From: Alphaproteobacteria bacterium
GTDB taxonomy: Bacteria > Pseudomonadota > Alphaproteobacteria > SHVZ01
Direction: 5' to 3'
Length of the DNA: 64,000 nt
NCBI GenBank assembly: GCA_044223515.1
Contig: JBGALV010000002.1
Coordinates: forward strand, 64,015 to 128,014
In this document: piece after piece, positions 17,676-54,125 of the stretch
Layout: every line of letters begins with the position of its first letter
Numbering within the stretch: position 1 is the first letter of the stretch
Translations under genes and position numbers: made by a program
Notes under the pieces: model-generated
What the model saw: only the letters and a program-made list of their open reading frames with translations
The model's database searches: none
What the model was told of the DNA's origin: nothing

Positions 17676-17704
17676 CAGAAAAGTTCCCCTTTCAGAGGGA
17701 ACTT
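17676..17704 (-). terminator. Intrinsic terminator downstream of the sugar-phosphate isomerase gene
   Basis: Perfect palindrome AAGTTCCC-ctttcaga-GGGAACTT, followed on the minus strand by TTTTCT. Confidence 0.6.
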
Positions 17705-20551: not shown

Positions 20552-20695
20552 GTCTGGTTTCCTCACCCGGATTCGTTGACGGCCGATCTTAAGGCCGCGA
20601 GCGAGGATAGCGGCACCGGATTTGCCGCGCCATGGAACCGGCTACCGCGCCGGGGGTTCTCCCAGGACCATAACAATGAAAGAACGGAGACACCG

Positions 20696-39578: not shown

Positions 39579-39582
39579 GGCC

Positions 39583-40395
39583 TTACTCGGCGGCGATGAC
39601 GGGCGGCGCCTTCCAGCGGTAGCCGAAGGACGGGTAGTTCTCGATCTCGTCGAAGTTGGCGTCGACCGCGCGGAACTTGTCGCGGATCCGACGCATCGCC
39701 GATCGCACGTTGGTGCGGAAGCCGTTGTCGCCAGCACCCGCGATGAAGCCGGCCCGATGGACGCAGTCGTAAAGCGCGCGGTAGGTCGCATGCTCACCGA
39801 CGCTCGCCGCCAGCATCCGGACGATATTGTACTCGGTTACGGTCAAATTGACGTCGATGCCGTCCCAATAGGCTCGACCAACCTTGGCCCGGAGCAACAG
39901 CCGGCCGCGATGAATGTCCTCGGCGGTGGCCGGCCTGAGCCTGACGCCTTCGGCCTCGACGGCCAGCTTGATGCGCTTGGTCAGGATGTCGGTGCCGCGC
40001 GACTTGTCGACGAAGTCGACGGCCCCTTGATCCAGCGCCGCCGCCTCGAAGGATCGCTCGGGCATGCCGGTCAGGAAGATCGTCGGCATGGCTGCGCCCT
40101 GATTGCGCATCCGGCTCAGGAGATCGATGCCGCTCATCGACGGCATCTTCCAGTCCAGAATGACCACGTCGGCCGGGCCGCCGCCTGCGAGGTGGCGAAG
40201 AAGGTCGCCGCCTTCCGCGAAGGCAGTGACCTCGAACCCGTTGTCGGCGAGGCCACCTTTGACCATCTCGCGGAATCGATCGTCGTCATCGACCAGGGCA
40301 ACACGGATCTTGTCCACGATCCGAGCCTGCTCTGCCGGCGCCGGACCGGGGCCGGCACCGGACGTGGCGACGACCTTCTGAAGGATTGTCATCAT
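39583..40395 (-). CDS. OmpR-family two-component response regulator (receiver plus winged-helix), orphan
   Basis: Receiver (VALVDDDDRFREMV...DVVILDWKMPSMSGIDLL..) and winged helix (..LTVTEYNIVRML..). A GAGGG RBS is present. No kinase gene is adjacent. Confidence 0.8.
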   Translation of the reverse strand: MMTILQKVVATSGAGPGPAPAEQARIVDKIRVALVDDDDRFREMVKGGLADNGFEVTAFAEGGDLLRHLAGGGPADVVILDWKMPSMSGIDLLSRMRNQGAAMPTIFLTGMPERSFEAAALDQGAVDFVDKSRGTDILTKRIKLAVEAEGVRLRPATAEDIHRGRLLLRAKVGRAYWDGIDVNLTVTEYNIVRMLAASVGEHATYRALYDCVHRAGFIAGAGDNGFRTNVRSAMRRIRDKFRAVDANFDEIENYPSFGYRWKAPPVIAAE

Positions 40396-40845
40396 CGGAT
40401 ACCCTCGCCGTCCTTGTCGATGCTTCGTCCCTGTGACGAAGTCGTGCTGTTTCCCTAGAACGGCGGAGAAGGCTTCCGGTTCAACGGACTTCTTTAACAA
40501 GCTCAATGTTCGAGAAACCGGGACTCCTGGTCGAGGCGGGCAAAGAACTGGTCCGCCCGGTCGGCTTCGCCGGCCCGGCACATGAACCCGACACTGGCCA
40601 ACCACTCCGCCAATTCGGGCGACGGCCTCGACCTGGCAGCCTGGCTTTGCTGCCGCCTCAACCCGCTCGGTGCACGAAGCCGGTTCACCACCCAGCACGG
40701 GCCAGCCGAAGCCAACGAGCACCATGCAGGCCGCGGTCACGATGACGGATGTCAGCGGCGACCGATCGATCGCCTTGGCCGAGCGGTCGAGGACGGCGGC
40801 GGCGTTGGCACGCGCAACGGGTTCACGGCCAGCTCTATGATGCCC

Positions 40846-41265
40846 TCATGACCGCAACCAAGCGCCGCGCAGCGCCAAGGTTCCATGAAGGAGCGATGGC
40901 AAGGCACGGCGGGAGGCGAGGCGACGATCGAGCTCGCGGGTCAGCGCCTCCAACGGTTCCGTGAGGGGCGGCAGGTCCCGATCGAAAAGGCGGTGAAGCT
41001 CGACGTTGAGGGCGCGATAAGCGGTCGTTGCTGACAAGGCATCCGGATCGCGGGCGAGCGCGGCTTCAACGGCCGACCTGCGGCCGGCCTTCAGCAGAGC
41101 GTCGACATAAGCGTGCAGGTCCGCCTCATCGATCGTGCCTGATGAGCGGCCAACCTCGGCGAGCCGAACCACCTTTACGTCCGGTGTGTCCTGGTTCGCT
41201 GCCTCAAACACAATATTCGTAAAGACGGTCGTCACGGTTCGGCCAGTGGATGCAATGCGATCCAT
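40846..41265 (-). CDS. hypothetical protein (139 aa)
   Basis: High GC3 codon bias is consistent with coding. I recognise no motifs. It is embedded in a ~1 kb low-confidence region. Confidence 0.3.
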   Translation of the reverse strand: MDRIASTGRTVTTVFTNIVFEAANQDTPDVKVVRLAEVGRSSGTIDEADLHAYVDALLKAGRRSAVEAALARDPDALSATTAYRALNVELHRLFDRDLPPLTEPLEALTRELDRRLASRRALPSLLHGTLALRGAWLRS

Positions 41266-41405
41266 TCATAGACACATGTAAATCGATTCTATTCCGCCCC
41301 GTACGGAGCCTCTCCGCGGGAATAATTGTTATCCGGTGCAGTCCATGCAAAGGCGGGAGCCCAACGGCGGCGTTCGCTCGACAAAGCAACGGCAAGGAGC
41401 TCTCG

Positions 41406-42407
41406 ATGCTGGCTAAACCGGGATTTCGGTTACTCGCCTCGCGTCTCAAGTCCACGAGCAAGACGGTCCGAAAAGCGATTTTCCCGGTGGGTGGACTCGG
41501 AACGCGTTTCCTGCCGGCAACCAAGGCGGTTCCGAAGGAAATGCTGCCGGTCGTGGATAAGCCCTTGATCCAGTACGCAGTCGAGGAAGCCCTCGCCGCC
41601 GGCATCGAGGAGTTCATCTTCGTCACCAGCCGCGGCAAGGAAGCGATCCAGGATCACCTCGATCGAAGCCAGGATCTGGAGACAGCCCTTCTGTCGCGCG
41701 GAAAGAAAAACGAAGCGGCCGCTCTCAACACGTGGCTGCCCGAGCCGGGCAAGGTCACCTTTCTCCGCCAGCCGAAGCCGCGTGGTCTCGGCCACGCCGT
41801 GTGGTGCGCCCGGTCCCAGATCGGCAACGAGCCGTTCGCGGTCATTCTCCCCGACGACCTGATCCTTGCGGTCACACCTTGCTTGCGCCAAATGATCCAC
41901 GCCCACGCCCAGGTCGGCGGCAACCTCCTGGCACTGATGCCGGTTCCTCGCGCTCATATCTCACGCTATGGCGTCATCGACCCGGTGACACAGCATGGAC
42001 GCCTGATCGAAGCCAGCGGCGTGGTCGAGAAGCCGCCCGCGGAACGCGCGCCATCGGCGCTCGCCGTGATCGGCCGCTACATCCTGCAGCCCGATATCTT
42101 CCGGTACCTCGAAGAGGTGGAACCGGGTGCCGGCGGAGAAATCCAGCTCACCGACGCGATCGCGAGGATGATCTCCGACCACGCATTGCACGGCTACCGC
42201 TTCGACGGACGACGCTTCGATTGCGGCGACAAGCTCGGTTTTCTCGAAGCGAACCTCGCCTTCGCACTCGGACGAGCCGACCTCGCCGAAGGTGCCGCAG
42301 AAATCCTTCAGCGATATGCGCATCCGCACGCGGAGCCGGAATTCGATCAGGAGATCGTACCGAATCCGCTTCCCGCGGCTTCGAACGGCGTTCGCATCAG
42401 GGCCTAG
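41406..42407 (+). CDS. galU: UTP--glucose-1-phosphate uridylyltransferase
   Basis: KAIFPVGGLGTRFLPATKAVPKEMLPVVDKPLIQY is the signature N-terminal nucleotide-binding motif of GalU. Confidence 0.85.
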   Translation: MLAKPGFRLLASRLKSTSKTVRKAIFPVGGLGTRFLPATKAVPKEMLPVVDKPLIQYAVEEALAAGIEEFIFVTSRGKEAIQDHLDRSQDLETALLSRGKKNEAAALNTWLPEPGKVTFLRQPKPRGLGHAVWCARSQIGNEPFAVILPDDLILAVTPCLRQMIHAHAQVGGNLLALMPVPRAHISRYGVIDPVTQHGRLIEASGVVEKPPAERAPSALAVIGRYILQPDIFRYLEEVEPGAGGEIQLTDAIARMISDHALHGYRFDGRRFDCGDKLGFLEANLAFALGRADLAEGAAEILQRYAHPHAEPEFDQEIVPNPLPAASNGVRIRA

Positions 42408-43027
42408 GCTCGCGCCGACGCACGGCGACCAACGTTTTGCCGCCCGTCCGTCATGCGCCGTAGCGCCTCGCGGCCGCGTGACAACCGCGACATGACAGTG
42501 CCGATCGGCAGGTCGAGCACCTGGGCAGTTTCCTCGTAGCTGAGGCCTTCAAGACCGACCAGCATCACCACCCGATGCTGCTCGACGGGCAAGGATTCGA
42601 GCGCGCGCGCAAGATCGCGAAGCTCGATCGCGGCAGGCTGCGATGCGGGCTGCGGCAAGGAACCGGCGACCTCGTCGAAGTCTACCGCGTCCGTCGTCTC
42701 GGCGCGGCGGCTCACCTGATCGACATGGACGTTGTGCAGGACAGTGAAGAGATAGGCCCGCACATTCCGGATGTCGGCCGGAAAATTGGGCCGCGAAAGC
42801 GCGCGCGCCAGGCATTCCTGCACCAGGTCGTCGGCATCGCCGCGACCGGCAGACAGAACACGCGCGTATCGGCGGAGATCGGCAACGTACCGCTCCACCC
42901 CACTGGGTGAATTGCTCACGATTGGCCCCCTGCCCTCGAGGTCGGCGCCGCGATGGGCGCCGACGCGGTCTGCGTCCCTCAAGAAATAAAGATCCGGGAC
43001 CCGCGGCAGCGTGACATTGCCCGACAC
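42404..43027 (-). CDS. ECF sigma factor (sigma-70 family), no adjacent anti-sigma
   Basis: Region 2 (DADDLVQECLARAL..AYLFTVLHN) and region 4 (LPVEQHRVVMLVGLEGLSYEETAQVLDLPIGTVMSRLSRGREAL). The true start is probably internal to the 207-aa ORF. Confidence 0.7.
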   Translation of the reverse strand: MSGNVTLPRVPDLYFLRDADRVGAHRGADLEGRGPIVSNSPSGVERYVADLRRYARVLSAGRGDADDLVQECLARALSRPNFPADIRNVRAYLFTVLHNVHVDQVSRRAETTDAVDFDEVAGSLPQPASQPAAIELRDLARALESLPVEQHRVVMLVGLEGLSYEETAQVLDLPIGTVMSRLSRGREALRRMTDGRQNVGRRASARA

Positions 43028-43290
43028 GGCAGTGACAAATCTGGGATCGCTTCGGAAAGCCGTCGCACCCCACGAAGTTCTATGAAGAAATATGCGGGAG
43101 ACGGCGGAATAAAGCTCCGCTGTCCAGGTCTGTCTGGTCGAGAGAGCTTTGAGACGCGGCCTGCTAGTCCAGTCGGCAGGCCGATGTTCGAAAGGCGACG
43201 GGACCCATACCTACGGCGACTCCCCCCTGCCGCCCATAGGGTACCGTCGCTGCCGGCGCGCCGCCCACCCCGGCGCGCCGGCCTCTTCTT

Positions 43291-43611
43291 CTAAATCTTC
43301 GAAATCGGCAGCGTCAGGACGAGAAACGACAGCGATTTGCCGTGGCCGTCGAGATTCAGGCTGCCATTCACGCCGCCCTCGAGGGCGTCGTCGATGACGA
43401 AGTTGAGCGCCTTGAGCAGTGGCAGCTCGTAGCGCCGCACCTCGCTGGCTCCCCGCCCCGCGAACAAGGCCTTCACCCTTTCCGGCGTCACCTGCTCGAG
43501 CAGCAGCGGATAGTCTTCTCTTCGGTAGGCGATGACGCTGACGTTGAGCCGGTTGCCTTTGTCGCCGGTCCGCGCATGCGCGATCTCGTGAAGAGGAACA
43601 TCGGCCATCAC
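43291..43611 (-). CDS. DUF4387-like small protein (AtuA-associated ferredoxin-fold partner)
   Basis: 106 aa, coupled downstream of the DUF1446 gene. It contains ..HARTGDKGN.., typical of this partner family. Confidence 0.55.
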   Translation of the reverse strand: MMADVPLHEIAHARTGDKGNRLNVSVIAYRREDYPLLLEQVTPERVKALFAGRGASEVRRYELPLLKALNFVIDDALEGGVNGSLNLDGHGKSLSFLVLTLPISKI

Positions 43612-44984
43612 GCGGCTCCCGTCAGGATCGAGATTGCAGGTCGGATCGACGCCACCGGCACATAGGCCGAGACGGTCCTCACGCGCCCGGTGACCGTTGT
43701 CCGAACGCCCGCCCCTCCGGCGGGCCCGGTCGGATAGAGCGACAGGACTTCACGGGCGATGCGGTCAGCGGTCGCGCGATCGTCCGACGTGCCGGAAAGC
43801 CGGACCCTATAGTCGCCGTCGGGTGGCGGCGCGGCGGACCGTCGGCGGATTCCACCGTCGCTGTCGAAGATGCTGACCGCGCCGATGACGTCGCAGCGCA
43901 CCGGCTGGTTGATGCCGAGCGTCTTGATCCTCTTGAGCAGAACCTCGGCGGCAAGTTCGGCGCGGGCCAGTGCGTTGGGGCCAGCATAGGAGATCTCGCC
44001 TTCGGCAAGGAAACCGCCTTCCAGGCTGACGGTGACCTTATAGGTCGGCGGTGGGGGTGCGCCGCGCACGCCTTGAATGCGCACGCGGTCCCGAGCCTCG
44101 GTCTCCAGCCGGACCCCGGTGATATCCATCGTCACATCCGGTGTCAGGTATGCCTTGGGATCGTGCAGTTCGTAGAGCATCTGCTCGGTGACCGTCGCCT
44201 CCGAGACCAGGCCGCCTGTGCCCGCCGGCTTTGTGACGACCATCGCGCCGTCCCTCGCCACCTCGACAATCGGAAAACCGACGCGATCGAGATCGGGGAT
44301 ATCCTTCCGGCCCGGATCGGCAAAGTAACCGCCGCTCACCTGGGCGCAGCACTCGATCAGGTGGCCGGCGAGGACACCGGCTGCGATCCGGTCCCAGTCC
44401 GGCGGGGCCCAGCCGAACTCATGTAGGAGCGGGCCGAGCACGAGCGCCGAATCCGTGCAGCGCCCGGTGACGACGACATCGGCGCCTTTGGCAAGGGCCT
44501 GAGCGATGGGTTGTGCGCCGAGATAGGCGTTGGCGGCGATAATGTCGCGCCCGCTCAAGTTCGCTCGCTCGTCGTTAGGCCAACCACGGACCGCGTCGGC
44601 TCCGAGTGTCGCCAGAAGATCGTCGCCTTCGACGACCGCGACCTTGAGACCGGACAGGCCGAGTTCACCAGCGACGTCCAGCACGCGCCTGCCCGCGGCC
44701 ATCGGATTTGCAGCACCGAAATTGGCCACGATCCGGATTCCTGATCGCAGGCACTTCGCGAGAATGGGCCTAAGGAAATCGGCAAGGTACGGCGTGAAGC
44801 CGGCTCCCGGATCGCGCCGACGATCGAGCTGGGCCAGCGCCAGCGTCCGTTCAGCCAAGGTCTCGAAGATCAAGTAGGACGGCACGCCGGAAGAAGCGAG
44901 CGCGTCGACCACCGGCCCGGAGGCATCCGTCCGGTCACCGGAAAATCCGGCGCCGCACCCGACATGAACACGATCCGGCGCCAT
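43608..44984 (-). CDS. DUF1446 / acyclic-terpene-utilization AtuA-family protein
   Basis: 458 aa. MAPDRVHVGCGAGFSGDR... with a GxGxxG start is characteristic of the AtuA family. Confidence 0.6.
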   Translation of the reverse strand: MAPDRVHVGCGAGFSGDRTDASGPVVDALASSGVPSYLIFETLAERTLALAQLDRRRDPGAGFTPYLADFLRPILAKCLRSGIRIVANFGAANPMAAGRRVLDVAGELGLSGLKVAVVEGDDLLATLGADAVRGWPNDERANLSGRDIIAANAYLGAQPIAQALAKGADVVVTGRCTDSALVLGPLLHEFGWAPPDWDRIAAGVLAGHLIECCAQVSGGYFADPGRKDIPDLDRVGFPIVEVARDGAMVVTKPAGTGGLVSEATVTEQMLYELHDPKAYLTPDVTMDITGVRLETEARDRVRIQGVRGAPPPPTYKVTVSLEGGFLAEGEISYAGPNALARAELAAEVLLKRIKTLGINQPVRCDVIGAVSIFDSDGGIRRRSAAPPPDGDYRVRLSGTSDDRATADRIAREVLSLYPTGPAGGAGVRTTVTGRVRTVSAYVPVASIRPAISILTGAA

Positions 44985-45194
44985 CTCATGCCCCTCTCAA
45001 GCCCTTGTTTTGACTGTGCGGTCGACCCTTCCGACGGGTCAACCGGAAGGGCATCGCGCGGAAACAGGGGTACCTAGGTGCCGTGACAGCTAAACCCCAG
45101 CCAAATCACTGAAATGCCACACGTGATTAGCCAATTCTAAGGCGTGACAGCGGCAAGCCTTGCCACGGTTTTCAAATATAAAAGAGGCCTCCCC

Positions 45195-45782
45195 ATGAGC
45201 GCGATGATGCATGAAGACATTCTCGACTGCCTTCCCCACATCAACGGTTTCGCGCGACGGCTGACCCGCGACCGAGCGATGGCCGACGATCTGGTGCAGA
45301 CCGCGGTCATGCGGGCGCTCGCCCATGCCCACCAGTACAAGCCGGGCACCAATTTTCGGGCCTGGATCACCACCATTCTCCGCAACTCTTACTTCAACGA
45401 GATGCGGGCCCTGAGCCGGCGTCCGAGCGTCGACATCGACGTCGAGGGCATCGCCGCGATCACCAGCGGCGGCCAGGAAGAGCGCATGAATGTTCGCGAC
45501 TTTTGCCGTGCTTTCCGCCGCCTGTCGGCCGAGCAGCAGAAGGCCCTCCTTCTGGTCGGCCTGGACGGCCGTTCCTATGAGGAAGCCGCGGAGATCGCCA
45601 ACTGCGCCGTCGGCACCATGAAGAGCCGCGTCTCTCGCGCCCGCCTTCAGCTCCAGCAACTGCTGGAAGGCAGCGGCGCGAAGCTGTCGATGCTGCCGAT
45701 CGCGCTGGCCGCCGCCAGCGCCGACGAGGACCGTCCGCGCCGCCGCCGCGCCGCGGCGAAGGACCAGCCGACCGCCCACTAA
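45195..45782 (+). CDS. ECF sigma factor, candidate EcfG-type general stress sigma
   Basis: Region 2 DDLVQTAVMRAL..FRAWITTILRNSYFNEMR and region 4 LSAEQQKALLLVGLDGRSYEEAAEIANCAVGTMKSRVSRAR. An AAAAGAGG RBS precedes ATG 45195. It sits in the phyR-nepR stress island. Confidence 0.7.
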   Translation: MSAMMHEDILDCLPHINGFARRLTRDRAMADDLVQTAVMRALAHAHQYKPGTNFRAWITTILRNSYFNEMRALSRRPSVDIDVEGIAAITSGGQEERMNVRDFCRAFRRLSAEQQKALLLVGLDGRSYEEAAEIANCAVGTMKSRVSRARLQLQQLLEGSGAKLSMLPIALAAASADEDRPRRRRAAAKDQPTAH

Positions 45783-45807
45783 CGTCGATCCCAACGGCCC
45801 CTCCAGA

Positions 45808-45840
45808 CGCCCGCCGGCTTCCGGCGGGCGTCGTCGTTTG
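45808..45840 (+). terminator. Intrinsic terminator after ECF sigma gene
   Basis: Stem CGCCCGCCGG-cttc-CGGCGGGCG, then TCGTCGTTTG. Confidence 0.5.
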
Positions 45841-45950
45841 AGCTCTTCGATGCTTGAATCCTCGCAACCATTCGCACCGAGCGACGGTTGATCACCCGAC
45901 GACGCCTGCGACGCGGCAGGTCGCTCCAAGATCAGTTTCGGAGGAGAGAA

Positions 45951-46367
45951 ATGCTTAAGATTCTTCTCTTGAGCGCCGCAGTGACGACCGGCATTGCCGC
46001 GCCGTCCTTCGCCCAGACTCAGCCGTCGACCTCGCCCAGCGCTCCCGCCACGACCATGCCGGTGACGCCTCCGGTCACGGGACCTGCGCCGGGTGCGATC
46101 AAGGGCAGCACCCTCATCAACATGGACGTCAAGAATGGCGCGGACGAGAAGGTCGGCGATATCAACGACGTGATCGTGGCCGCGGACGGCAAGGTCCAGC
46201 AGGTGATCATTTCTGTCGGCGGTTTCCTCGGCGTGGGAACCCGCAAGGTGGCGGTCGCCTGGAACGACGTGAAGGTCGACACCGCTGCCGACGTGGCGTT
46301 CGTGAACCTCTCACGCGAGCAGCTGGCGGCCGTGCCCGAGTTCAAGGACCGTCGCACCACGCCGTAA
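45951..46367 (+). CDS. secreted PRC-barrel domain protein
   Basis: Signal peptide MLKILLLSAAVTTGIAAPSFA. PRC-barrel core ..LINMDVKNGADEKVGDINDVIV..DGKVQQVIISVGGFLGVG.. GGAGGAG RBS. Confidence 0.7.
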   Translation: MLKILLLSAAVTTGIAAPSFAQTQPSTSPSAPATTMPVTPPVTGPAPGAIKGSTLINMDVKNGADEKVGDINDVIVAADGKVQQVIISVGGFLGVGTRKVAVAWNDVKVDTAADVAFVNLSREQLAAVPEFKDRRTTP

Positions 46368-46573
46368 AGAGATCCTCGGGGCTCCTCGCCTCTCGGGGAC
46401 TGAGGAGAGGACACACCGAGGTCTGGCGCCTCTCCGGCCGCTTCGGCGGATCGGAGAGGCGCCGGTCGCATTTCAGGACCCTCCGTGCATCTACGCCGGC
46501 GTCAATTCCCCACGTCCATAAAAGAAAACGGCCAGGCGATGCCTGGCCGTTTCTCCAAGCAGGCTTGAACCGT

Positions 46574-46966
46574 TCAGATCCAGAACGGCGGGACGTTGTA
46601 GTAGTCGTGCACCTTCCGGGCCCAGACGGGATCGTCCCAGTCGAGCGCGTCGGTCTTACGATAGGTCGGAGCGCCTTCGAGCTGTTCCTTGTCGAGATCG
46701 ATGACGTAGCTTTCCAGCTTGGGATCGTACCTGAGCACGCTCCATGGCAGAGCATGGTAGCGATCGCCGATACCGAGGAAGCCGCCGAACGACATCACGG
46801 CGTAGGCGACCTTTCCGGTCAGCTTGTCGATCATCACGTTGTCGATCGAGCCGAGCTTCTCTCCCGACCGATTACGGACGGTGGTACCTTCGACCTTGTC
46901 CGCGGCGATCAGCTTGCGGGTCTCTGACGAGGACAGATGATCTTGATCCTGCGTATGCGTGGCCAT
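46574..46966 (-). CDS. PRC-barrel domain protein (cytoplasmic paralog)
   Basis: ..LIAADKVEGTTVRNRSGEKLGSIDNVMID..GKVAYAVMSFGGFLGIG.. parallels the neighbouring PRC-barrel protein. A GGAGG RBS precedes ATG 46966. Confidence 0.7.
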   Translation of the reverse strand: MATHTQDQDHLSSSETRKLIAADKVEGTTVRNRSGEKLGSIDNVMIDKLTGKVAYAVMSFGGFLGIGDRYHALPWSVLRYDPKLESYVIDLDKEQLEGAPTYRKTDALDWDDPVWARKVHDYYNVPPFWI

Positions 46967-47044
46967 TCCGGCCTCCTTCTTTGTTGAGAGCGGTCCGAAA
47001 CCGAACGCGGGATCGACGCTTGGAGTTGCCGGCACCGCCAACGC

Positions 47045-47890
47045 CTAAGCGGCAGCGACCCGCCGACGTCGGGCGATATTCTTGCGGGAGGGTGCCGAGC
47101 TCTTTCGAGACGCCTTCTGCCGGGTCGCCAGCGCCTGGGCGATGGTTGCCGTCAGCGCCTCGGGGTCGAACGGCTTGGTCAGCAGGAACGTAGGCTCCAC
47201 TTTGTCGCCGGTGAGGAAAGCTTCCGGGAATCCGGTGACGAAGATCACCGGGACCTCGCTGATGCGCATGATCTTCTCGACCGCTTCGATGCCGCTGTCC
47301 CCGTCCTTGAGCTGAACGTCGGCAAGAATAAGGTCCGGACGGAACTCCTCCGACAAGGCGACGGCCTTCGCCTCGGTATCGGCGACGCCGACGACGGTGT
47401 GACCTGCGGAACGGACGGTGACGACGATGTCCATCGCGATAACCGCCTCGTCTTCGATGACGAGGACCCGGGCGCCGGCGTCCTTCTGAAGGTCGAGCCG
47501 CGCTTGCAGCAGCTTTTCGCGGGCCTCGTCTGCCGAAAGTCCCAGGATCTCGCCGGCATTCGCAACCGAGAAGCCTTCGAGCGAGACCAGCAGAAGGATC
47601 TGCCGGTCCAGCGCCGGCAACGCGGCGATTTGGCGCTCGAGGTCGTCGTCGCCATCAGCGACGGTCGAGGGCTCGGCGGCCGGTTCGAGGCCATCGCACA
47701 CTTGGTGGAAGGCGCGGAAGGTCTCGAGCTTCGCGTCGCCGCTGCCGGAGACCAGCTCAGGATCCGCGAGCACAACCTCGAGAAATTGCCGGACGTAACG
47801 GTCGCCACGTTCCTGAGTGCCGGTCAGGGCTCGCGTATAACGACGAAGATAGGGGAGCACGCGAACCATCGAATCTGCGTGGAGGGCCAT
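47045..47890 (-). CDS. phyR: PhyR anti-anti-sigma response regulator (ECF-sigma-like N-domain plus receiver)
   Basis: N-terminal sigma-like VRVLPYLRRYTRALTG..FLEVVL and a C-terminal receiver (ARVLVIEDEAVIAMD..DLILADVQLKDGDSG..TKPF). 282 aa. A GGAGA RBS is present. Confidence 0.85.
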   Translation of the reverse strand: MALHADSMVRVLPYLRRYTRALTGTQERGDRYVRQFLEVVLADPELVSGSGDAKLETFRAFHQVCDGLEPAAEPSTVADGDDDLERQIAALPALDRQILLLVSLEGFSVANAGEILGLSADEAREKLLQARLDLQKDAGARVLVIEDEAVIAMDIVVTVRSAGHTVVGVADTEAKAVALSEEFRPDLILADVQLKDGDSGIEAVEKIMRISEVPVIFVTGFPEAFLTGDKVEPTFLLTKPFDPEALTATIAQALATRQKASRKSSAPSRKNIARRRRVAAA

Positions 47891-48027
47891 CTGTTTCTCC
47901 GTTTTAGGCGGGCCGGCGCGACCGTGCCCGACCGCCATTTTGTCCCTAGGTCGAAGGAGGATCCCGTGGTCGCCGAAGCTATCGGTGGCCACAGCTTGTG
48001 GGTGGATTGGATAAGACCTTGATTGCC

Positions 48028-48052
48028 TGAACCAATGCGTCTCCGGACCGTT
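48028..48052 (+). promoter_or_regulatory. EcfG-type promoter (GAAC-N16-CGTT) driving nepR, divergent from phyR
   Basis: The sequence is tGAACcaatgcgtctccggacCGTTga. The -35 GGAAC-like element and the -10 CGTT are spaced 16 nt apart. Confidence 0.6.
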
Positions 48053-48151
48053 GACTCAAACGCAGGGGACGCAACCGCCCCCGCACTGAAATGGTATCTG
48101 CGGGTGCAGCGGGGTCGAGCGGCAAACCGGTGGCAAAGGGGTGATCAGGCC

Positions 48152-48337
48152 GTGACCGAGCCGAATCGTCCAAAGAAACCAATTCATAAACAAAAAAAGG
48201 CAAATACCAGGGAGCCACCCGTCGTTGCTCCGGCCGATGAACGGCGTGCGCTCTCCGACCGTCTGAAAACACTCTATGGCGCGGTCGTCGAAGAGCCTCT
48301 TCCATTGGACATGTTGCGTCTCTTGAGGAAGCAGTGA
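48152..48337 (+). CDS. nepR: NepR anti-sigma factor
   Basis: C-terminal ERRALSDRLKTLYGAVVEEPLPLDMLRLLRKQ matches the conserved NepR core (..L..LY..V..EP.P..L..LL). A GTG start lies after an AAGGGG RBS. The longer ORF starts upstream of its own promoter. Confidence 0.7.
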   Translation: MTEPNRPKKPIHKQKKANTREPPVVAPADERRALSDRLKTLYGAVVEEPLPLDMLRLLRKQ

Positions 48338-48402
48338 CCCGCAAAAGGAAACGGCCGGGCGCGAGCCCGGCCGTCCGTACCTCTTCATGGAATGGATCTG
48401 CG

Positions 48403-48681
48403 TTAGGCGCCAGGCCCGTTGAGGTCGCGACGCCAGATCGGCTCGCCCAGATCTACCTGCCGTTCATTGGTGACCGCGCCGGTAGCACCGCCGGCCGCCG
48501 CACCGATCAGCGCACCCGGAACCGCACCGATGCCGCCGAAGATCGCGCCCACGGCCGCACCGCCAGCTGCGCCGATGGCTGCTCCGCCGCCGGCGCGTTC
48601 AACCGGCCGGTTGGCCGTACCGCAGCCGGCCACGACCGCAGCCGTCACGAGCAGACAAGGGATCAAGCGAAGGTAAGTCAT
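48403..48681 (-). CDS. glycine-zipper (Gly-zipper_2TM / YMGG-like) lipoprotein
   Basis: Lipobox LLVTAAVVAGC, then GAAIGAAGGAAVGAIFGGIGAVPGALIGAAAGGATGAV. Confidence 0.7.
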   Translation of the reverse strand: MTYLRLIPCLLVTAAVVAGCGTANRPVERAGGGAAIGAAGGAAVGAIFGGIGAVPGALIGAAAGGATGAVTNERQVDLGEPIWRRDLNGPGA

Positions 48682-48762
48682 GTCACACTCCTCGATACCA
48701 ATCTCATGCCCTTAGAAGGTCGCGGGTATGAATGCGTTCCTTATCCGACGTCCTTCAACCGA

Positions 48763-49335
48763 CTAAGTCGCCGTGATTTCATGGACATGCACGTCGGTAG
48801 CCCCGTGCCGTTTTAGGATCTCCAAGGCCTGTTCTTCCTGTGCGCCGCTCTGGATCTTCACCCAGAGCAGGATTCCGCCCTGGTCGACCTGATCGCGCAG
48901 GAAATCGCTGCGGCTCCCGCTGATCCACCGGCCGATCGTATTTGCCGCAGCGGCAGCGCCGCCGCCAGCGGCGGCCGCTCCGATCGCCGCGGCCAGCGCA
49001 CCGCCGCCTGTCAGGATAGTGGCGCCCGATGCCGCGAACGCAGCGATCACCGCCGCCAGGCTGGTCGCAAGCGTGCGGCCCTGCCGGACATCTTCGTCCT
49101 CGACGACCGGGCTCCTCTTCACCTCGGGCTCGTCGGCCGCCTGGTGCATGTCATGACCGTGCGCTGGAATGCCGGGCTGGAAGACACCCTCCTGCCCGAG
49201 CAGGCTCATCTCGGACTTGTCCCAGCCGGAGCTGGCGAGCTCGGCGATCGCCTTCTCCAGCGCCTCGGCCGAGTGAAAAGCGCCGACGACCTCGCGGACG
49301 ACCGCCTCTTCATGGACGACGCGTCGAGTAGTCAT
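48763..49335 (-). CDS. YflT/GSP17M-like general stress protein with glycine-zipper segment
   Basis: N-terminal VVGAFHSAEALEKAIAELASSGW resembles the YflT domain. The central Gly/Ala zipper is ILTGGGALAAAIGAAAAGGGAAAAAN. Confidence 0.5.
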   Translation of the reverse strand: MTTRRVVHEEAVVREVVGAFHSAEALEKAIAELASSGWDKSEMSLLGQEGVFQPGIPAHGHDMHQAADEPEVKRSPVVEDEDVRQGRTLATSLAAVIAAFAASGATILTGGGALAAAIGAAAAGGGAAAAANTIGRWISGSRSDFLRDQVDQGGILLWVKIQSGAQEEQALEILKRHGATDVHVHEITAT

Positions 49336-49370
49336 GATCTCGCTCCTCGGGGATGGATCGGTTGTGCGGG

Positions 49371-49727
49371 TCAGCCGTGGTGGCGATTGCGCATGAACAG
49401 CCCGAACATCAGGCCCGCCGCTGCCGCGAGGACGGTCAACGGCGACTCCTGCTTGAGCGCGCTCACGATCTGGTCGACCGCTTCGTCGCCGGACTGCGCA
49501 CCGACGGCCGCTTTGGCTATCGGCGCGATTGCGCCACGCGAACGCCGACGGTTGGCCATCGCCTCCGAGACGAGCCAGATGAAGCCCGCCAGGATGATGA
49601 GACCGCCACCGACCATGAGAGCCGCCAGCGCCGGGGGATAGATCGCGCTCAGCGCCAGGTAGCTGGACGCGATCAAGAACGCCGCGCCGGTCACGGCCAG
49701 CACGATGACGACGATGGTCGAAACCAT
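49371..49727 (-). CDS. YqjE-like (phage-holin-family / DUF1469-like) small membrane protein
   Basis: 118 aa with two TM helices, directly downstream of the DUF883 gene as in E. coli yqjD-yqjE. The ATG is at 49727. The longer 170-aa ORF overlaps DUF883. Confidence 0.55.
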   Translation of the reverse strand: MVSTIVVIVLAVTGAAFLIASSYLALSAIYPPALAALMVGGGLIILAGFIWLVSEAMANRRRSRGAIAPIAKAAVGAQSGDEAVDQIVSALKQESPLTVLAAAAGLMFGLFMRNRHHG

Positions 49728-49746
49728 GGGGACTATCGCTTCGACG

Positions 49747-50061
49747 TCAACGCCGCAGCGTAAGCATCGCCGCGGCCACGCCCGCGGCGAACGCGGTGGC
49801 GAGCGAGGCCATCGGATTGTTCGCGACCTGGCTCCGTACCACGTCTCCGGTATCGGCGGCGGCCTGCCGGGCGGTGCCGACACCGTCGGTCAGCAGATCC
49901 TGAAACTGCTCTTGGATCCGGTCCAGCTGCTCGCGCGCCTTCTCGACGCCGACTTCCTTTCCGCTCGACGCGATCTGCTCGAGATCGCCGACAAGGGATG
50001 ACAGGTCGTTCTGCAGAGCACGGATGCCGGACTGCAGCTTACGGCTCTCACGGGATGCCAT
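49747..50061 (-). CDS. DUF883 (ElaB/YqjD/YgaM family) membrane-anchored stress protein
   Basis: MASRESRKLQSGIRALQNDLSSLVGDLEQ... coiled coil plus a C-terminal TM anchor (MASLATAFAAGVAAAMLTL). A GGAAGGAG RBS is present. Confidence 0.75.
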   Translation of the reverse strand: MASRESRKLQSGIRALQNDLSSLVGDLEQIASSGKEVGVEKAREQLDRIQEQFQDLLTDGVGTARQAAADTGDVVRSQVANNPMASLATAFAAGVAAAMLTLRR

Positions 50062-50106
50062 TGGTGACTCCTTCCGCGGCGGGGAATTGCCGTCTTCGAA
50101 GCGAAA

Positions 50107-50131
50107 AACGCGAACTGGCGCGAAGGGTTCC
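50107..50131 (-). promoter_or_regulatory. EcfG-type promoter (GGAAC-N16-CGTT) for the DUF883 operon
   Basis: The minus strand reads GGAACccttcgcgccagttcgCGTTtttc, 37 nt upstream of the DUF883 ATG. Confidence 0.65.
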
Positions 50132-50199
50132 GCCCGTCGCGGGAACCGGCGAAGGGGCAAGGGGTTGAATGTTCGTTGAGCCCTCAGGGGGAGGTCCCC

Positions 50200-50361
50200 A
50201 TGCCGACATTAGGAATCATGCTGATGGTGGCGCTGGTCCTGACGCTGATCGGGCTGGTGCCGACCACCACCGACGGACGCAGCTGGACACGTTCCGGCGG
50301 CGGAGTCCTCGGCGCCTTCCTGGTCGTCGTCCTTCTGTTGAGCGCCAGCGTCCGTCTCTAG
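50200..50361 (+). CDS. DUF3309-like small membrane protein (second copy)
   Basis: MPTLGIMLMVALVLTLIGLVPTTTDGRSWTRSGGGVLGAFLVVVLLLS parallels the DUF3309 protein at 20696. A GGGGGAGG RBS is present. Confidence 0.55.
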   Translation: MPTLGIMLMVALVLTLIGLVPTTTDGRSWTRSGGGVLGAFLVVVLLLSASVRL

Positions 50362-50375
50362 GTGAAGGCTCTCAG

Positions 50376-50627
50376 ATGACTCCAGACAAGAAGCGCCCTG
50401 AAGACGCGATGCGGGAGCCGCGGCATTCCGAAGAGACGCCGTTGCAGGCACGCGGCCCTGATCCGCGCCTGGACACACGCCCGGAGGAGATCGACGACGG
50501 CCCCAACGGGAAACTCGCCGGCGGGGCTCACCACGACAAAAAGCCGCCGGTTCTGAAGAAGCAGGAAGACAAGCACCGCGCCCTCGAGCGCGGACGCCCG
50601 TCAGATACCGGACGCGCAGGCGCCTGA
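50376..50627 (+). CDS. small hydrophilic (hydrophilin-like) stress protein, hypothetical
   Basis: 83 aa, highly charged (K/R/D/E/P-rich), with a GAAGG RBS. Context is the general stress island. Confidence 0.4.
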   Translation: MTPDKKRPEDAMREPRHSEETPLQARGPDPRLDTRPEEIDDGPNGKLAGGAHHDKKPPVLKKQEDKHRALERGRPSDTGRAGA

Positions 50628-50657
50628 TCGCGCGTCCTTCAATTTCCGGAGTGAAGC

Positions 50658-50825
50658 ATGTTGCAATGGGCCCTGACGTTTCTGCTGATCGCGCTCGTGG
50701 CCGGCCTCTTCGGCTTCGGCGGCGTCGCGGTCGTCGCCGCCGACTTCGCTCGGATCTTGTTCTTCATCTTCCTGGTTCTGTTCGTCGTGACGTTGGCATC
50801 GGGCCTGTTCCGACGCCGCGCCTGA
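50658..50825 (+). CDS. DUF1328 (UPF0391) small membrane protein
   Basis: MLQWALTFLLIALVAGLFGFGGVAVVAADFARILFFIFLVLFVVTLASGLFRRRA (55 aa) is the canonical DUF1328 pattern. It is below the ORF-track size cutoff. Confidence 0.7.
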   Translation: MLQWALTFLLIALVAGLFGFGGVAVVAADFARILFFIFLVLFVVTLASGLFRRRA

Positions 50826-50850
50826 CCCAGCGAGCTGACTTCCGCTCTGC

Positions 50851-50876
50851 GGAACCTCACCCTCCGCGATCGCGTT
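50851..50876 (+). promoter_or_regulatory. EcfG-type promoter (GGAAC-N17-CGTT) for csbD
   Basis: GGAACctcaccctccgcgatcgCGTTgg lies ~33 nt upstream of the csbD ATG. Confidence 0.65.
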
Positions 50877-50908
50877 GGAGAACTGCTTTTCAGCAGAGGA
50901 GAATTGCA

Positions 50909-51109
50909 ATGAATTGGGATATCGCCGACGGCAACTGGAAGACCTTCAAGGGCAAGGTCAAGCAGCAGTGGGGCAAGCTCACCGATGACGACCTGACCCA
51001 GATCGAGGGCAAGCGCGACGAGCTGCTCGGCCGCCTCCAGGAGCGGTACGGCATCGCCAAGGACGAAGCCGACAAGCAGGTGAGGGACTGGGAGTCGCGG
51101 CTGAACTAG
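50909..51109 (+). CDS. csbD: CsbD-family general stress protein
   Basis: MNWDIADGNWKTFKGKVKQQWGKLTDDDLTQIEGKRDELLGRLQERYGIAKDEADKQVRDWESRLN is the textbook CsbD pattern. An AGGAGA RBS is present. Confidence 0.9.
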   Translation: MNWDIADGNWKTFKGKVKQQWGKLTDDDLTQIEGKRDELLGRLQERYGIAKDEADKQVRDWESRLN

Positions 51110-51188
51110 CCGCTCCCTCTCGGTGTCACGGCGGCCGGGCGATGCCCGGCCGCTTCGTTTTTGGCCGGGCCGCGGATAGATTGTCCGC

Positions 51189-52214
51189 ATGACCAAGAAG
51201 CATCGCGCCGCCATCGTCGGTCTCGGCATGGCCCATGGCCAACACCTCCAGAGCCTTCGCGACCTCGAGGACCGTGTCGAGATCGCGTCAGCTTTCACGC
51301 CGAGCGCCAAGCGACGCGAGACGTTCGGCAGTGCCAATCCCGGCATTCGGCTCGTCGACGATCTGAAGCCTATACTCGACGACGCCTCGATCGACGTCGT
51401 CCTGATCCTCACGCCACCCAACTCCCATCTCGATCTCGTCGAACGCTGCGCCGCGGCCGGCAAGCATGTGCTGCTGGAGAAGCCGGTCGAGGTCACGACC
51501 GAGCGCGCGGAGAAAGCGGTCGTCGCCATGGAGCGTGCCGGCCGGAAGCTCCAGATCATGCTGCAGCACCGGTTCCGAGAGGGGGCTCGCCATCTGGCCG
51601 AGATCATGCGCGCCGGCGGTCTTGGTGCGCTGGTCTCCGGATCGGCGCAGATCCGCTGGTGGCGATCGCCCGAATACTTCGCCCAGCCCGGCCGCGGCAT
51701 GAAGGCGCGCGACGGTGGCGGCGTGCTCATCACCCAGGCGATCCACACACTCGACCTGTTCCAGAGCCTGACCGGCCCGATCTCCCAGGTCGCGGCGATG
51801 GCCGTCACCTCCCCACTCCGCAGGATCGACACCGAGGACGTAGTCGGCGCCGCGATCCGCTTCGCCAATGGCGCGGTCGGCACCATCGATGCGACGACGG
51901 TGGCATATCCCGGCTTCACCGAACGAATGGAACTCGCCTGCGAGAAGGGCACTGCGGTACTGACCGCCGGCGATCTGGTCATCGACTGGAAGGACGGCCG
52001 CGAGGAGAAGGTCGCCTCCGATCAGGGCAGCGGCGGCGGCGCCGATCCGATGGCGTTCTCCCACAAGGGCCATCGTTCGGTGATCGCCGACCTGCTCGAC
52101 GCGATCGACCAGGATCGGGAGCCGGAGATCAGCGGCCGGAAGGCTCTTGCCGTGCATCGCCTGATAGATGGCCTGCTGGCGTCGTCGGAACGAGGCGCGC
52201 CGGTCACGCTGTAA
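51189..52214 (+). CDS. Gfo/Idh/MocA family oxidoreductase
   Basis: AAIVGLGMAHGQH Rossmann start and ..EKP.. motif. 341 aa. Confidence 0.8.
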   Translation: MTKKHRAAIVGLGMAHGQHLQSLRDLEDRVEIASAFTPSAKRRETFGSANPGIRLVDDLKPILDDASIDVVLILTPPNSHLDLVERCAAAGKHVLLEKPVEVTTERAEKAVVAMERAGRKLQIMLQHRFREGARHLAEIMRAGGLGALVSGSAQIRWWRSPEYFAQPGRGMKARDGGGVLITQAIHTLDLFQSLTGPISQVAAMAVTSPLRRIDTEDVVGAAIRFANGAVGTIDATTVAYPGFTERMELACEKGTAVLTAGDLVIDWKDGREEKVASDQGSGGGADPMAFSHKGHRSVIADLLDAIDQDREPEISGRKALAVHRLIDGLLASSERGAPVTL

Positions 52215-52295
52215 GATTGCGCCACCCTCGACCCGTCGCTATAAGCTCACCTTCCCCGGCCGGCGGCCTCGTGCCGCCGGTGGAACTGCCTCGGT

Positions 52296-52372
52296 CGGAG
52301 CGTAGCGCAGCCTGGTAGCGCATCAGTCTGGGGGACTGGGGGTCGTGGGTTCAAATCCCGCCGCTCCGACCA
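52296..52372 (+). tRNA. tRNA-Pro (anticodon GGG)
   Basis: Manual fold: acceptor CGGAGCG/CGCTCCG, D-stem GCGC/GCGC, anticodon stem TCAGT/ACTGG with loop CTGGGGG (anticodon GGG), T-arm GTGGG-TTCAAAT-CCCGC, discriminator A plus CCA. Confidence 0.8.
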
Positions 52373-52541
52373 ATTCTCTCGAATATTTGGCTCGACCGAT
52401 CGCCTTCGATTTCGGAGGATGACCTGACATAGCCGTCGCATATTTTTACTAAATAATATTGTGTATTGATTTTTTTCACATAAACAACCAGCTTTTCGCC
52501 ATCTACTGTCCACGCCATCGATATCCCCCGGGGAGGCCGTC

Positions 52542-54125
52542 GTGATCTCATCTGTTTTCCGTACCATCGCAGTTGCCGCTGCCCTACTCGCCGGCGCGGC
52601 ACTCGTCACGCCCACGGCCGAGGCCCAGCAGCCTAAGCACGGCGGCACGCTCCGCTTCGTCATGAAGTACGAACCGCCGACACTCTCGGTGCTCAACAAC
52701 ACCTCGACGACGACGACCTCGCCCAAGATCTGGGACGGGCTCCTCGCCTACGATCCCGACCTCAAGCCGCTGCCGATGCTGGCGACCTCCTGGGCGGTCT
52801 CGCCGGACGGGCTGCAGTACACCTTCAACCTGCGTGAAGGCGTCACCTTCCATGACGGCAAGCCGTTCACCTCGGCCGATGTGGCCTTCTCGATCCTGCG
52901 CCTGAAGGCCGGCCATCCGCGCGGCCGCGGCACCTTCGCCAATGTCGAAGAGGTGAAGACTCCCGACGCCAAGACCGCGATCGTCGTGCTTTCGAAGCCC
53001 TCGCCCTACATGCTGGTGGCGCTCGGCGGCTCGGAATCTCCCATGATCCCGAAGCACCTCTATGAAGGCGTCGACGTTGCGGCTCCGCCCGCGCAAGCGC
53101 TGCACATCGGCACGGGACCGTTCGTCCTCAAGGAATGGGTGCGTGGCAGCCACGCGCTCCTCGAGCGCAATCCAAACTACTGGGACAAGCCGAAGCCCTA
53201 CCTCGACCGGGTGATCATCCGCTTCATGCCGGATGCCGCCGCCCGCGCCGCGGCCTTCGAGTCCGGCGATCTCGACCTCGGCGGCAGCGCACCCGTGCCG
53301 CTCGCCGACCTCGAGCGCTACAAGAACCACCCGAAGCTCGCCGTCGACACGCGCAGCTTCGCCTATACCGGCGCGCAGCATCAGATCTTCTTCAACCTCG
53401 ACACGCCGGTGCTGAAGAACAAGAAGGTCCGAGAGGCAGTCGCGCATTCGCTCAACCTCGACGCCATCGTCGAGACGGTGTTCTACGGCCAGGCCAAGGT
53501 CTCGCCCTCGCCGGTCAGCGTCGCGCTGACGCCGTGGTACGACCCGGCCGTGCAGCCGCGTAAGTTCGACGTGGCCCTCGCCAACAAACTGCTCGACGAA
53601 GCCGGTCAGCCGCGCACCGGCGGCGGCAACCGCTTCCAGGTCCGCCTGCTGATCAACCCATTCATCGACGGGCGCTTGGCTGAATTCGTCCGCCAGTCGC
53701 TGCGCCAGGTCGGTATCGATGCAGTGATCCAGAACCTCGAGTTCGGCGCCTATGCCAAGGCGGTCTACACCGACCGCGCCTTCGACCTGACGATCGAGTC
53801 CTTGACCAACGTCTTCGACCCGACCGTCGGCGTTCAGCGCGGCTACTGGTCGAAGAACTTCAAGCCGGGCCTGCCCTTCTCGAACTCGGCGCACTACGAG
53901 AACCCCGAGGTCGACCGTCTTCTCGAAGCGGCGGCGATCGAGGTCGATGCCGCCAAGCGCAAGCAGCTGTTCTCGCAGTTCCAGCGGATCGTCCACGAGG
54001 ACGTGCCCTCGGTCGACATGATCTCCCCGCTCGAGATCATCATCGCCAACAAGAAGATCCGGAACTACGCCCGCGGCGCCGAAGGCCTCGGCGACAACTT
54101 CGCCGACGTGCATTTCGTCGACTGA
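52542..54125 (+). CDS. ABC transporter substrate-binding protein, family 5 (peptide/nickel/opine type)
   Basis: Signal peptide, then family-5 SBP architecture over 527 aa. GTG start. Followed by dppBCDF-like genes. Confidence 0.8.
   Translation: MISSVFRTIAVAAALLAGAALVTPTAEAQQPKHGGTLRFVMKYEPPTLSVLNNTSTTTTSPKIWDGLLAYDPDLKPLPMLATSWAVSPDGLQYTFNLREGVTFHDGKPFTSADVAFSILRLKAGHPRGRGTFANVEEVKTPDAKTAIVVLSKPSPYMLVALGGSESPMIPKHLYEGVDVAAPPAQALHIGTGPFVLKEWVRGSHALLERNPNYWDKPKPYLDRVIIRFMPDAAARAAAFESGDLDLGGSAPVPLADLERYKNHPKLAVDTRSFAYTGAQHQIFFNLDTPVLKNKKVREAVAHSLNLDAIVETVFYGQAKVSPSPVSVALTPWYDPAVQPRKFDVALANKLLDEAGQPRTGGGNRFQVRLLINPFIDGRLAEFVRQSLRQVGIDAVIQNLEFGAYAKAVYTDRAFDLTIESLTNVFDPTVGVQRGYWSKNFKPGLPFSNSAHYENPEVDRLLEAAAIEVDAAKRKQLFSQFQRIVHEDVPSVDMISPLEIIIANKKIRNYARGAEGLGDNFADVHFVD

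Follow-up and report, generated by a model that had tools for sequence, protein, structure and literature searches.

A probable PhyR-NepR-EcfG general stress response locus and its predicted local target genes in an uncultured alphaproteobacterium

The window analyzed here is a stretch of 64,000 nucleotides (64 kb; contig JBGALV010000002.1) from an uncultured alphaproteobacterium, and its positions 45195-51109 hold 13 genes which we read, with a probability of about 0.8, as the locus controlling the general stress response (GSR), made up of PhyR (an anti-anti-sigma response regulator), NepR (an anti-sigma factor) and an EcfG-type sigma factor, together with a local set of target genes. A previous sequence-only reading of this DNA had proposed such a locus, with EcfG-type promoters (GGAAC-N16/17-CGTT) in front of small stress genes; all 13 genes exist where it had placed them, and the proposal is supported by the gene identities, the promoter boxes, and the conservation and enrichment of these boxes observed in the present analysis. 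The locus contributes a GSR module of an uncultured lineage of Alphaproteobacteria and leaves the picture of the PhyR-NepR-EcfG system unchanged.

The relatives used throughout were related metagenomic loci (L001-L004 and L086-L089), with footprinting across seven, and the alignment set consisted of the window and three syntenic contigs of metagenome-assembled genomes (MAGs; L001-L003), whose PhyR proteins are 93-95% identical. The entire gene order is kept in the five loci that cover it (L001-L003, L088 and L089), and those parts of the locus that are present in L004, L086 and L087 are syntenic as well. The nearest named relatives of the encoded proteins were found in Stellaceae and other Rhodospirillales-like MAGs, and the exact arrangement of the 13 genes is, as judged from the sequences compared, specific to this lineage.

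The regulators PhyR and NepR and a candidate EcfG

The phyR gene (47045-47890, minus strand) was identified by a match of 295 bits (cutoff 240) to the NCBIfam model NF006623 and by the three Pfam domains PhyR_sigma2, PhyR_sigma-like and Response_reg, which give the protein an N-terminal sigma-like domain and, at the C-terminus, a receiver bearing the phospho-acceptor Asp, as had been claimed. The receiver residues E146/D147, D191, T219 and K239 are all present, and the top matches in the PDB were the PhyR structures 5uxw, 4qic, 4g97 and 3n0r. The divergent orientation reported for phyR and nepR is equally correct: nepR lies on the plus strand (48152-48337), adjoins phyR, is monocistronic and encodes a protein of 61 amino acids from a GTG start. 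The NepR protein scored 25.0 bits with the Pfam NepR model, just below the cutoff of 25.7; nevertheless, only two of the 177,635 PDB sequences were matched at E<=10, and both are NepR chains (2lfw_B and 3t0y_B). The short protein, of the expected size of about 60 amino acids, carries the core L..LY..v.eEPlP..ml.LL, a profile of which retrieved only NepR chains from the PDB and a motif of which occurred a single time when the window was translated in all six frames, in the 48152-48337 gene. The GTG at 48152, with its ribosome-binding site, is the sole start conserved across L001-L003.

The 5′ leader of nepR (48090-48150, plus strand) is nearly identical in L001-L003, though the N-terminal codons of NepR diverge. 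An RNA structure in this leader was rejected, as it folds no better than shuffled sequences (z=+0.77), and so was an upstream open reading frame (ORF), the ATG at 48091 being lost in L003.

Two genes for extracytoplasmic function (ECF) sigma factors lie in this part of the window. The first (45195-45782, plus strand) is apparently monocistronic, and its product matches Sigma70_r2, Sigma70_r4_2 and PhyR_sigma2 in Pfam; the second (42404-42898, minus strand), also recognized by Pfam, is annotated to 43027 and probably starts at a GTG near 42898, because the annotated N-terminal part (about 40 codons) contains indels among the relatives. Both proteins were compared with a reference set of sigma factors from 74 loci (Hyphomonadaceae, Caulobacterales and Rhodobacterales) in which the sigma gene stands next to phyR. 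A hidden Markov model (HMM) of these 74 proteins gave the 45195 sigma 167.5 bits, compared to 105.3 for the 42404 sigma, and each of the 74 resembled the 45195 protein more (mean 124 bits vs 81 bits). The best PDB match of the 45195 sigma was 5uxx_A, with 115 bits, the next ECF sigma factor reaching 68, whereas the 42404 sigma matched 5uxx_A with 73 bits and SigH/SigE of Mycobacterium tuberculosis with 72. The chain 5uxx_B is annotated as NepR and matches the NepR profile; therefore 5UXX is a NepR-bound EcfG. The 45195 sigma is in this way the closer of the two to sigma factors regulated by NepR, is the best candidate for an EcfG of the ECF15 type, as its EcfG-like label had suggested, and can with good reason, on these similarities, be taken as the GSR sigma factor; its gene is called ecfG hereafter.

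A number of observations weigh against this reading of the locus. The ecfG gene is outside the nepR operon, 2.4 kb away from nepR, on the other side of phyR and beyond two genes for PRC-barrel proteins. Upstream of ecfG and of phyR there is no conserved EcfG box, the best matches having two to four mismatches and no conserved position. In no frame of the 64-kb window did a motif test, the only test made for such a kinase, find the HRxKN H-box of HWE/HisKA_2 histidine kinases. The homologues of the 45195 sigma (56-62% identity) stand alone, away from nepR and phyR. Finally, the second ECF sigma gene is only 2 kb away, and two similarity scores prefer its product: the sigma-like domain of PhyR gave 46 bits by BLASTP with the 42404 sigma, aligning over its full length, and 32 bits with the 45195 sigma, aligning only with region 4, and Pfam PhyR_sigma2 scored 44.5 bits for the former vs 32.6 for the latter. 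As to the genomic context, it could not pick EcfG, because the homologues of both sigma factors are stand-alone genes.

The two scores just mentioned raise the possibility that the 42404-42898 sigma is the one controlled by NepR, or a second EcfG of equal rank, and that the 45195 sigma is a subordinate or independent paralogue; EcfG1/EcfG2 and SigT/SigU are paralogous pairs comparable to such a situation. A plurality of EcfG-like sigma factors would also be in line with the fact that half of the alphaproteobacterial genomes have two or more of them (PMC3892343). However, the 42404 sigma is more distant than the 45195 sigma from every one of the 74 phyR-adjacent proteins and from their HMM, and it is as near to SigH/SigE as to the NepR-bound 5uxx_A. 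Its homologue in Futiania precedes a gene of 350 codons, as is typical where sigma and anti-sigma genes of a different ECF group are paired, and in the window its gene sits downstream of the atuA genes and is not part of the conserved stress cluster. We consider it rather improbable, in view of these distances, that the 42404 sigma is the NepR-controlled factor. As further observations on this gene, no anti-sigma gene is adjacent to it, galU is convergent on it and no conserved EcfG box was found upstream of it.

The region upstream of ecfG was also inspected for other signals. A GGAAAC...CGTG in the conserved block 45056-45125 was rejected as an EcfG box of ecfG, since it is two mismatches away from the consensus, and the block more likely belongs to another regulator, because it overlaps CGTGACAGC repeats that are also present upstream of the 42404 sigma. 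These CGTGACAGC / TGTCAC repeats (TGTCAC/GTGACA) are conserved at 45080-45142 (plus strand), in the divergent region between the 45195 sigma gene and atuA, and occur at 43040-43075 (minus strand) in front of the 42404 sigma; they may represent a shared operator of some regulator. In two other loci, exact EcfG boxes flank stand-alone homologues of both sigma factors (L081, 4698-4722 and 7628-7653; L085, 3779-3803), preceding a DUF1328 gene, a gene of 78 codons and a CBS-domain gene, with genes for superoxide dismutase and a ribosome hibernation factor as well as trehalose genes nearby.

EcfG-type promoters and the predicted circuit

A scan of the 64 kb with the exact motif GGAAC-N16/17-CGTT returned only two matches, at 50131-50107 (minus strand) and 50851-50876 (plus strand), with 0.8 expected per window; two or more were reached by 16 of 100 shuffles, which means that there is no enrichment over the window as a whole, and boxes with at most one mismatch numbered 29 vs 25 expected. 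The promoter signal became visible only once position, orientation and conservation were considered. Within the locus, boxes with at most one mismatch numbered 8 compared to 2.6 in local shuffles, none of 300 shuffles reaching 8, and 6 of the 13 genes have such a box in their own orientation within 130 nucleotides (nt) upstream, where 0.27 would be expected (0 of 1000 shuffles reached 6). Seven candidate boxes, two of them exact and five with one or two mismatches, stand before nepR and the presumed regulon genes, all of them intergenic, co-oriented and 32-99 nt before the gene. Comparison with three to seven relatives, depending on coverage, shows that their -35 and -10 boxes are kept on either side of diverging spacers.

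The two exact boxes precede the operon that starts with a DUF883-like gene (50107-50131, minus strand, GGAAC-N16-CGTT, 45 nt to the ATG), where the box is exact in all six covering sequences, and csbD (50851-50876, plus strand, GGAAC-N17-CGTT, 32 nt to the ATG). At csbD, five of the six covering sequences keep the -35 box, with a variable spacer and either CGTT or GGTT as the -10 box; GGTT is the form of L001 and L002, and in L088 no box was found at this position. The sequence-only reading had counted three GGAAC-N16/17-CGTT promoters: these two are perfect, as it had said, and the third, that of nepR, is one base off (TGAAC-N16-CGTT, 48028-48052, plus strand, 99 nt to the GTG). The nepR boxes are identical in the six sequences that cover them (window, L001-L003, L088 and L089), with a distance to the start codon of 96-101 nt.

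The other four boxes are variants, which the sequence-only reading had missed, as it had the second ECF sigma gene, the separation of ecfG from nepR and the lack of a recognizable PhyR kinase in the window. Back-to-back with the box of the DUF883-like operon, GGAAC-N16-GGTT lies 33 nt before the ATG of a DUF3309 gene, the first of the DUF3309-p83-DUF1328 unit (50142-50166, plus strand), and is a conserved variant, exact (CGTT) in L088 and L089. A conserved candidate promoter, GGAAC-N16-CCTT, precedes a lipoprotein gene by 34 nt (48716-48740, minus strand); GGAAC and CCTT are kept in the window and in L001-L003, and L088 has GGAAC-N17-CATT. The two PRC-barrel genes, PRC1 and PRC2, carry GCAAC as their -35 box. 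The candidate promoter of PRC1 (GCAAC-N17-GGTT, 45864-45889, plus strand, 61 nt to the ATG) has this GCAAC in all six covering sequences, followed by a variable spacer and by CGTT, TGTT or GGTT, and that of PRC2 (GCAAC-N17-CGTT, 47004-47029, minus strand, 37 nt to the ATG), directly 3′ of the phyR stop codon, is kept in all eight sequences, 26-37 nt ahead of the start codon, taking in L004 the exact form GGAAC-N16-CGTT. Since variant and consensus forms are interconverted among the relatives at PRC2, DUF3309 and csbD, all seven boxes appear to form a single promoter class. As footprinted examples that include GCAAC, GGTT and CCTT variants, they could help to train regulon predictors.

It might be argued that two sigma factors serve the locus, EcfG reading GGAAC and TGAAC and another ECF sigma, such as the 42404 sigma, reading the GCAAC boxes of the PRC-barrel genes, as GCAAC is found at both PRC genes in seven of the eight sequences and the remaining units have GGAAC or TGAAC. 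We think this very unlikely. The PRC2 box of L004 is the exact consensus; among genuine EcfG promoters of the GSR regulon of Sphingopyxis granuli, GCAAC is the second commonest -35 box, and EcfG transcribes from it in vitro (PMC7083833); and a PRC-barrel gene of Sphingomonas melonis is EcfG-dependent (PMC6599016). More generally, experimentally defined EcfG regulons are known to include -35 boxes of the form GCAAC and a flexible -10 box (PMC7083833, PMC6599016). That all motif matches have arisen by chance in a GC-rich genome, with no common regulation of the cluster, would agree with the insignificant window-wide counts and deserves hardly any credence against the gene-linked enrichment, the intergenic and co-oriented placement of the boxes, and their conservation between diverging spacers.

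What is known of these protein families suggests how the circuit would work, including the contacts between the proteins, the phosphorylation and the induction by stress. In unstressed cells, NepR (48152-48337) would keep the EcfG-type sigma factor (45195-45782) sequestered. When stress sets in, a histidine kinase, presumably encoded outside the window, would phosphorylate PhyR at D191, and phospho-PhyR would expose its sigma-like domain and capture NepR, so that the freed EcfG could guide RNA polymerase to the GGAAC-N16/17-CGTT-type boxes. Seven units of the locus would respond, namely nepR, PRC1 with a structured element at its 3′ end, PRC2, the lipoprotein gene, the operon of the DUF883-like, 118-aa (amino acid) and 190-aa proteins, the DUF3309/p83/DUF1328 unit and csbD; an eighth target would be a response regulator gene 7 kb away. 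The induction of nepR by EcfG would establish a negative feedback and, with ecfG transcribed apart from nepR and lacking a recognizable EcfG box, the feedback would act on the anti-sigma factor and not on the sigma factor.

The gene meant as the eighth target encodes an OmpR-type response regulator (39583-40395, minus strand) and is preceded at 63 nt by a TGAAC-N16-CGTT box (40459-40483, minus strand), which is outside the locus, has the same form as the nepR box and is conserved in L001 and L003; the gene is, from this box, probably an additional EcfG target. Upstream of it, an ORF of 139 codons (40846-41265, minus strand) has an anti-sigma-like N-terminus (DEADLHAYVDALL...) and may not be a real gene. 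Elsewhere in the window, two intergenic boxes with one mismatch were noticed, GGAAC-N16-AGTT at 17663-17687 (minus strand), 25 nt before the ORF 16565-17638, and GGAAC-N16-GGTT at 20634-20658 (plus strand), before a gene at 21045.

Two stronger statements about the locus did not hold. It had been described as packing the regulon unusually densely; within ±8 kb of phyR, however, most of 60 other alphaproteobacterial loci have four to five exact boxes (range 0-8) vs two here, the 60 phyR-centered loci spanning about 16.7 kb each and the window being counted over an equal span. In a set of 80 other phyR loci, genes of the same kinds were also found within 8 kb of phyR: DUF1328 in 50, CsbD in 17 and PRC in 13 of the 80. 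Nor does the locus contain nearly the whole core regulon, as had been claimed. An experimentally defined GSR regulon comprises around 79 transcription units and some 100 genes (PMC7083833), from which it follows that the genes described here are a small part of the regulon and not most of it, and at least one more conserved box lies outside the locus (40483-40459). The locus is an ordinary GSR locus, not an unusually dense one.

Predicted target genes and RNA elements

The family labels given to the target genes in the sequence-only reading were partly borne out. The ECF sigma, the two PRC-barrel proteins, PhyR, YMGG, DUF3309, DUF1328 and CsbD were recognized by Pfam or NCBIfam, with CsbD, DUF1328, DUF3309, PRC-barrel and YMGG above the Pfam gathering score; NepR fell just below the cutoff, and DUF883, YqjE-like and YflT-like proved weaker than had been stated. 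PRC1 (45951-46367, plus strand) is a secreted PRC-barrel protein of 138 aa with a signal peptide (Pfam PRC, E=9e-12), and PRC2 (46574-46966, minus strand) a cytoplasmic one of 130 aa (E=6e-16). The lipoprotein (48403-48681, minus strand, 92 aa) has the lipobox VAGC and a YMGG glycine zipper (Gly-zipper_YMGG, 31.7 bits, cutoff 28.9). On the right side of the locus are the genes, all on the plus strand, for small membrane proteins of the families DUF3309 (50200-50361, 53 aa, 28.1 bits, cutoff 22.3) and DUF1328 (50658-50825, 55 aa, 52.4 bits), between them that for p83 (50376-50627), a highly charged hydrophilic protein of 83 aa that is 62-82% conserved in the relatives and matched nothing in Pfam or NCBIfam, and, last, csbD for a stress protein of the CsbD family (50909-51109, 66 aa, 76 bits).

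The three genes of the DUF883-like operon, all on the minus strand, required a closer look. The first (49747-50061) encodes a tail-anchored protein of 104 aa that had no direct Pfam match, shares 28% identity with E. coli YqjD along its entire length (E=2e-7) and matches NF007523 (E=2e-5). When the protein and 18 relatives were scanned, DUF883_C was found in 8 and DUF883 in 3 of the 19, and a C-terminal transmembrane (TM) segment with a P...AF..G motif spans residues 84-102; on these similarities, it is best seen as a divergent member of the DUF883 (ElaB-YqjD-YgaM) family. The second (49371-49727) encodes a membrane protein of 118 aa, possibly YqjE-like, with two N-terminal TM helices and a hydrophobic C-terminus by hydropathy. 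E. coli YqjE itself belongs to PF07332 (Phage_holin_3_6); the matches of the 118-aa protein (E=0.85) and of two orthologues (E=0.006 and 0.02) to this family did not reach the cutoff, and BLASTP found no similarity between the 118-aa protein and YqjE.

The third gene (48763-49335) encodes the membrane protein of 190 aa labeled YflT-like, for which no clear family emerged: none of 120 listed homologues has a Pfam domain, and the protein matched YflT (PF11181) with E=0.13. In its family, weak matches to ActD were found in 21 and weak matches to YflT in 11 of 35 members (best 5e-4). An AlphaFold2 (AF2) model (predicted local distance difference test, pLDDT, of 71, with both ends above 90) suggests a beta-alpha-beta unit, a hydrophobic hairpin rich in Gly and Ala and a second beta-alpha-beta unit, and had no significant fold match in the PDB. 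The predicted stress regulon is hereby linked to uncharacterized small proteins, i.e., the 190-aa family, the 83-aa hydrophilic protein and the divergent DUF883 pair.

In E. coli, the yqjD-yqjE-yqjK operon is a stationary-phase operon, under RpoS, that encodes a ribosome- and membrane-associated DUF883 protein. As in that operon, a tail-anchored DUF883-like protein is followed here by a small protein with two TM helices behind a general-stress promoter, which is a predicted one in the window. Unlike in E. coli, the partner is without detectable similarity to YqjE, with weak PF07332 matches in orthologues only, the third gene encodes the unrelated 190-aa protein and not YqjK, and the predicted sigma factor is EcfG and not RpoS.

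Directly 3′ of the PRC1 stop codon, folding and conservation revealed a two-hairpin RNA element of 92 nt (46374-46465, plus strand), with a minimum free energy (MFE) of -67.7 kcal/mol (z=-5.4 against shuffles) and a conservation higher than that of the flanking coding sequence. In eight sequences, hairpin 1 and the loop CUCGGGGACUGAG are almost invariant, one bulge position varying, and six pairs of hairpin 2 show compensatory changes. The plus strand was always the more stable one, and the element occurs once in the window, always between the two PRC genes; no Rfam family matched it. The element may be a 3′ untranslated region (3′UTR), a terminator with an extra hairpin, or an EcfG-dependent small RNA (sRNA) derived from the 3′UTR. 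Non-coding RNAs are among the EcfG targets of Rhizobium etli (PMC3892343). A more far-reaching proposal, which we hold only tentatively and regard as doubtful, is that the lineage runs a rewired GSR, in which nepR alone is controlled by EcfG in a pure negative feedback, and that the PRC-barrel mRNA gives rise, at its 3′ end, to a hitherto undescribed, structured and stress-induced sRNA, the 46374-46465 element.

A second two-hairpin element (43185-43285, minus strand), 3′ of the AtuA ferredoxin-like gene, is highly conserved, with compensatory changes in L004; it folds modestly better than shuffles (z=-1.5) and has no Rfam match. Rfam scans of 39000-52600 returned only a tRNA and a sub-threshold match to SorX.

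The transcription units are separated by several hairpins. After the sigma gene, a GC hairpin with a short T-run (45806-45839, plus strand), read from the sequence, has a stem conserved in L001-L003 between varying flanks and is probably the terminator of ecfG; owing to the shortness of the T-run, it was missed by the terminator scan. The same scan detected an intrinsic terminator of PRC2 with a conserved stem, bidirectional in form (46525-46553, minus strand), and one of csbD (51130-51154, plus strand). Where nepR and the glycine-zipper gene converge, a GC hairpin with a conserved stem, likewise read from the sequence (48352-48373), is likely a bidirectional terminator.

The possibility of a horizontally acquired island was rejected, as the GC content of 0.63-0.66, compared to 0.65-0.68 in the flanks, shows no clear boundary. 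A tRNA-Pro(GGG) gene (52296-52372, plus strand) lies 1.2 kb 3′ of csbD, with a housekeeping-type gene for a GFO/IDH/MocA oxidoreductase in between, and no compositional sign of an integrated element was seen near it.

Comparison with known systems

The canonical examples of this system are SigT-NepR-PhyR of Caulobacter and the systems of Sphingomonas and Bartonella, with the structures 3T0Y, 2LFW and 5UXX. The locus described here is like a canonical one in its PhyR with sigma-like and receiver domains, its short NepR with the conserved core, its EcfG-type sigma factor and the divergence of phyR and nepR, as well as in having nepR, CsbD, PRC-barrel and DUF1328 genes behind GGAAC-N16/17-CGTT-type boxes. 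In the canonical layout, phyR is divergent from a nepR-ecfG operon and both are autoregulated (PMC4814048, PMC7083833). Unlike in that layout, ecfG of the window is not downstream of nepR, after which stand a terminator hairpin and a convergent gene instead of the nepR-ecfG operon context conserved in ECF15; ecfG is found 1.3 kb from phyR with its own hairpin terminator (45806-45839), and without the EcfG boxes through which ecfG and phyR would be positively autoregulated, and no HWE/HisKA_2 kinase is nearby.

In these deviations the locus resembles two described systems. As in Methylobacterium extorquens AM1, whose phyR locus is without ecfG and in which no ecfG is autoregulated (PMC4814048), nepR and phyR are together, no ecfG is in their operon and ecfG has no EcfG-type promoter; unlike in that strain, the window has one EcfG-type gene, without extension, at 1.3 kb from phyR. 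The strain TFA of S. granuli likewise has a nepR1-phyR1 pair without a sigma gene, and its ecfG2 has neither a cognate anti-sigma gene upstream nor a consensus promoter and is yet the main activator (PMC7083833). Also in TFA, GGAAC and GCAAC are the two commonest -35 boxes and the -10 box is flexible (PMC7083833). The difference is that TFA has two PhyR, two NepR and two EcfG proteins, whereas a single PhyR and a single NepR are seen in the 64 kb of the window. A layout with ecfG uncoupled from nepR is a documented type of variant (PMC4814048, PMC7083833), and the locus provides a further natural case of an ecfG split from nepR and apparently not autoregulated, which bears on the variation among lineages in the feedback of the partner switch.

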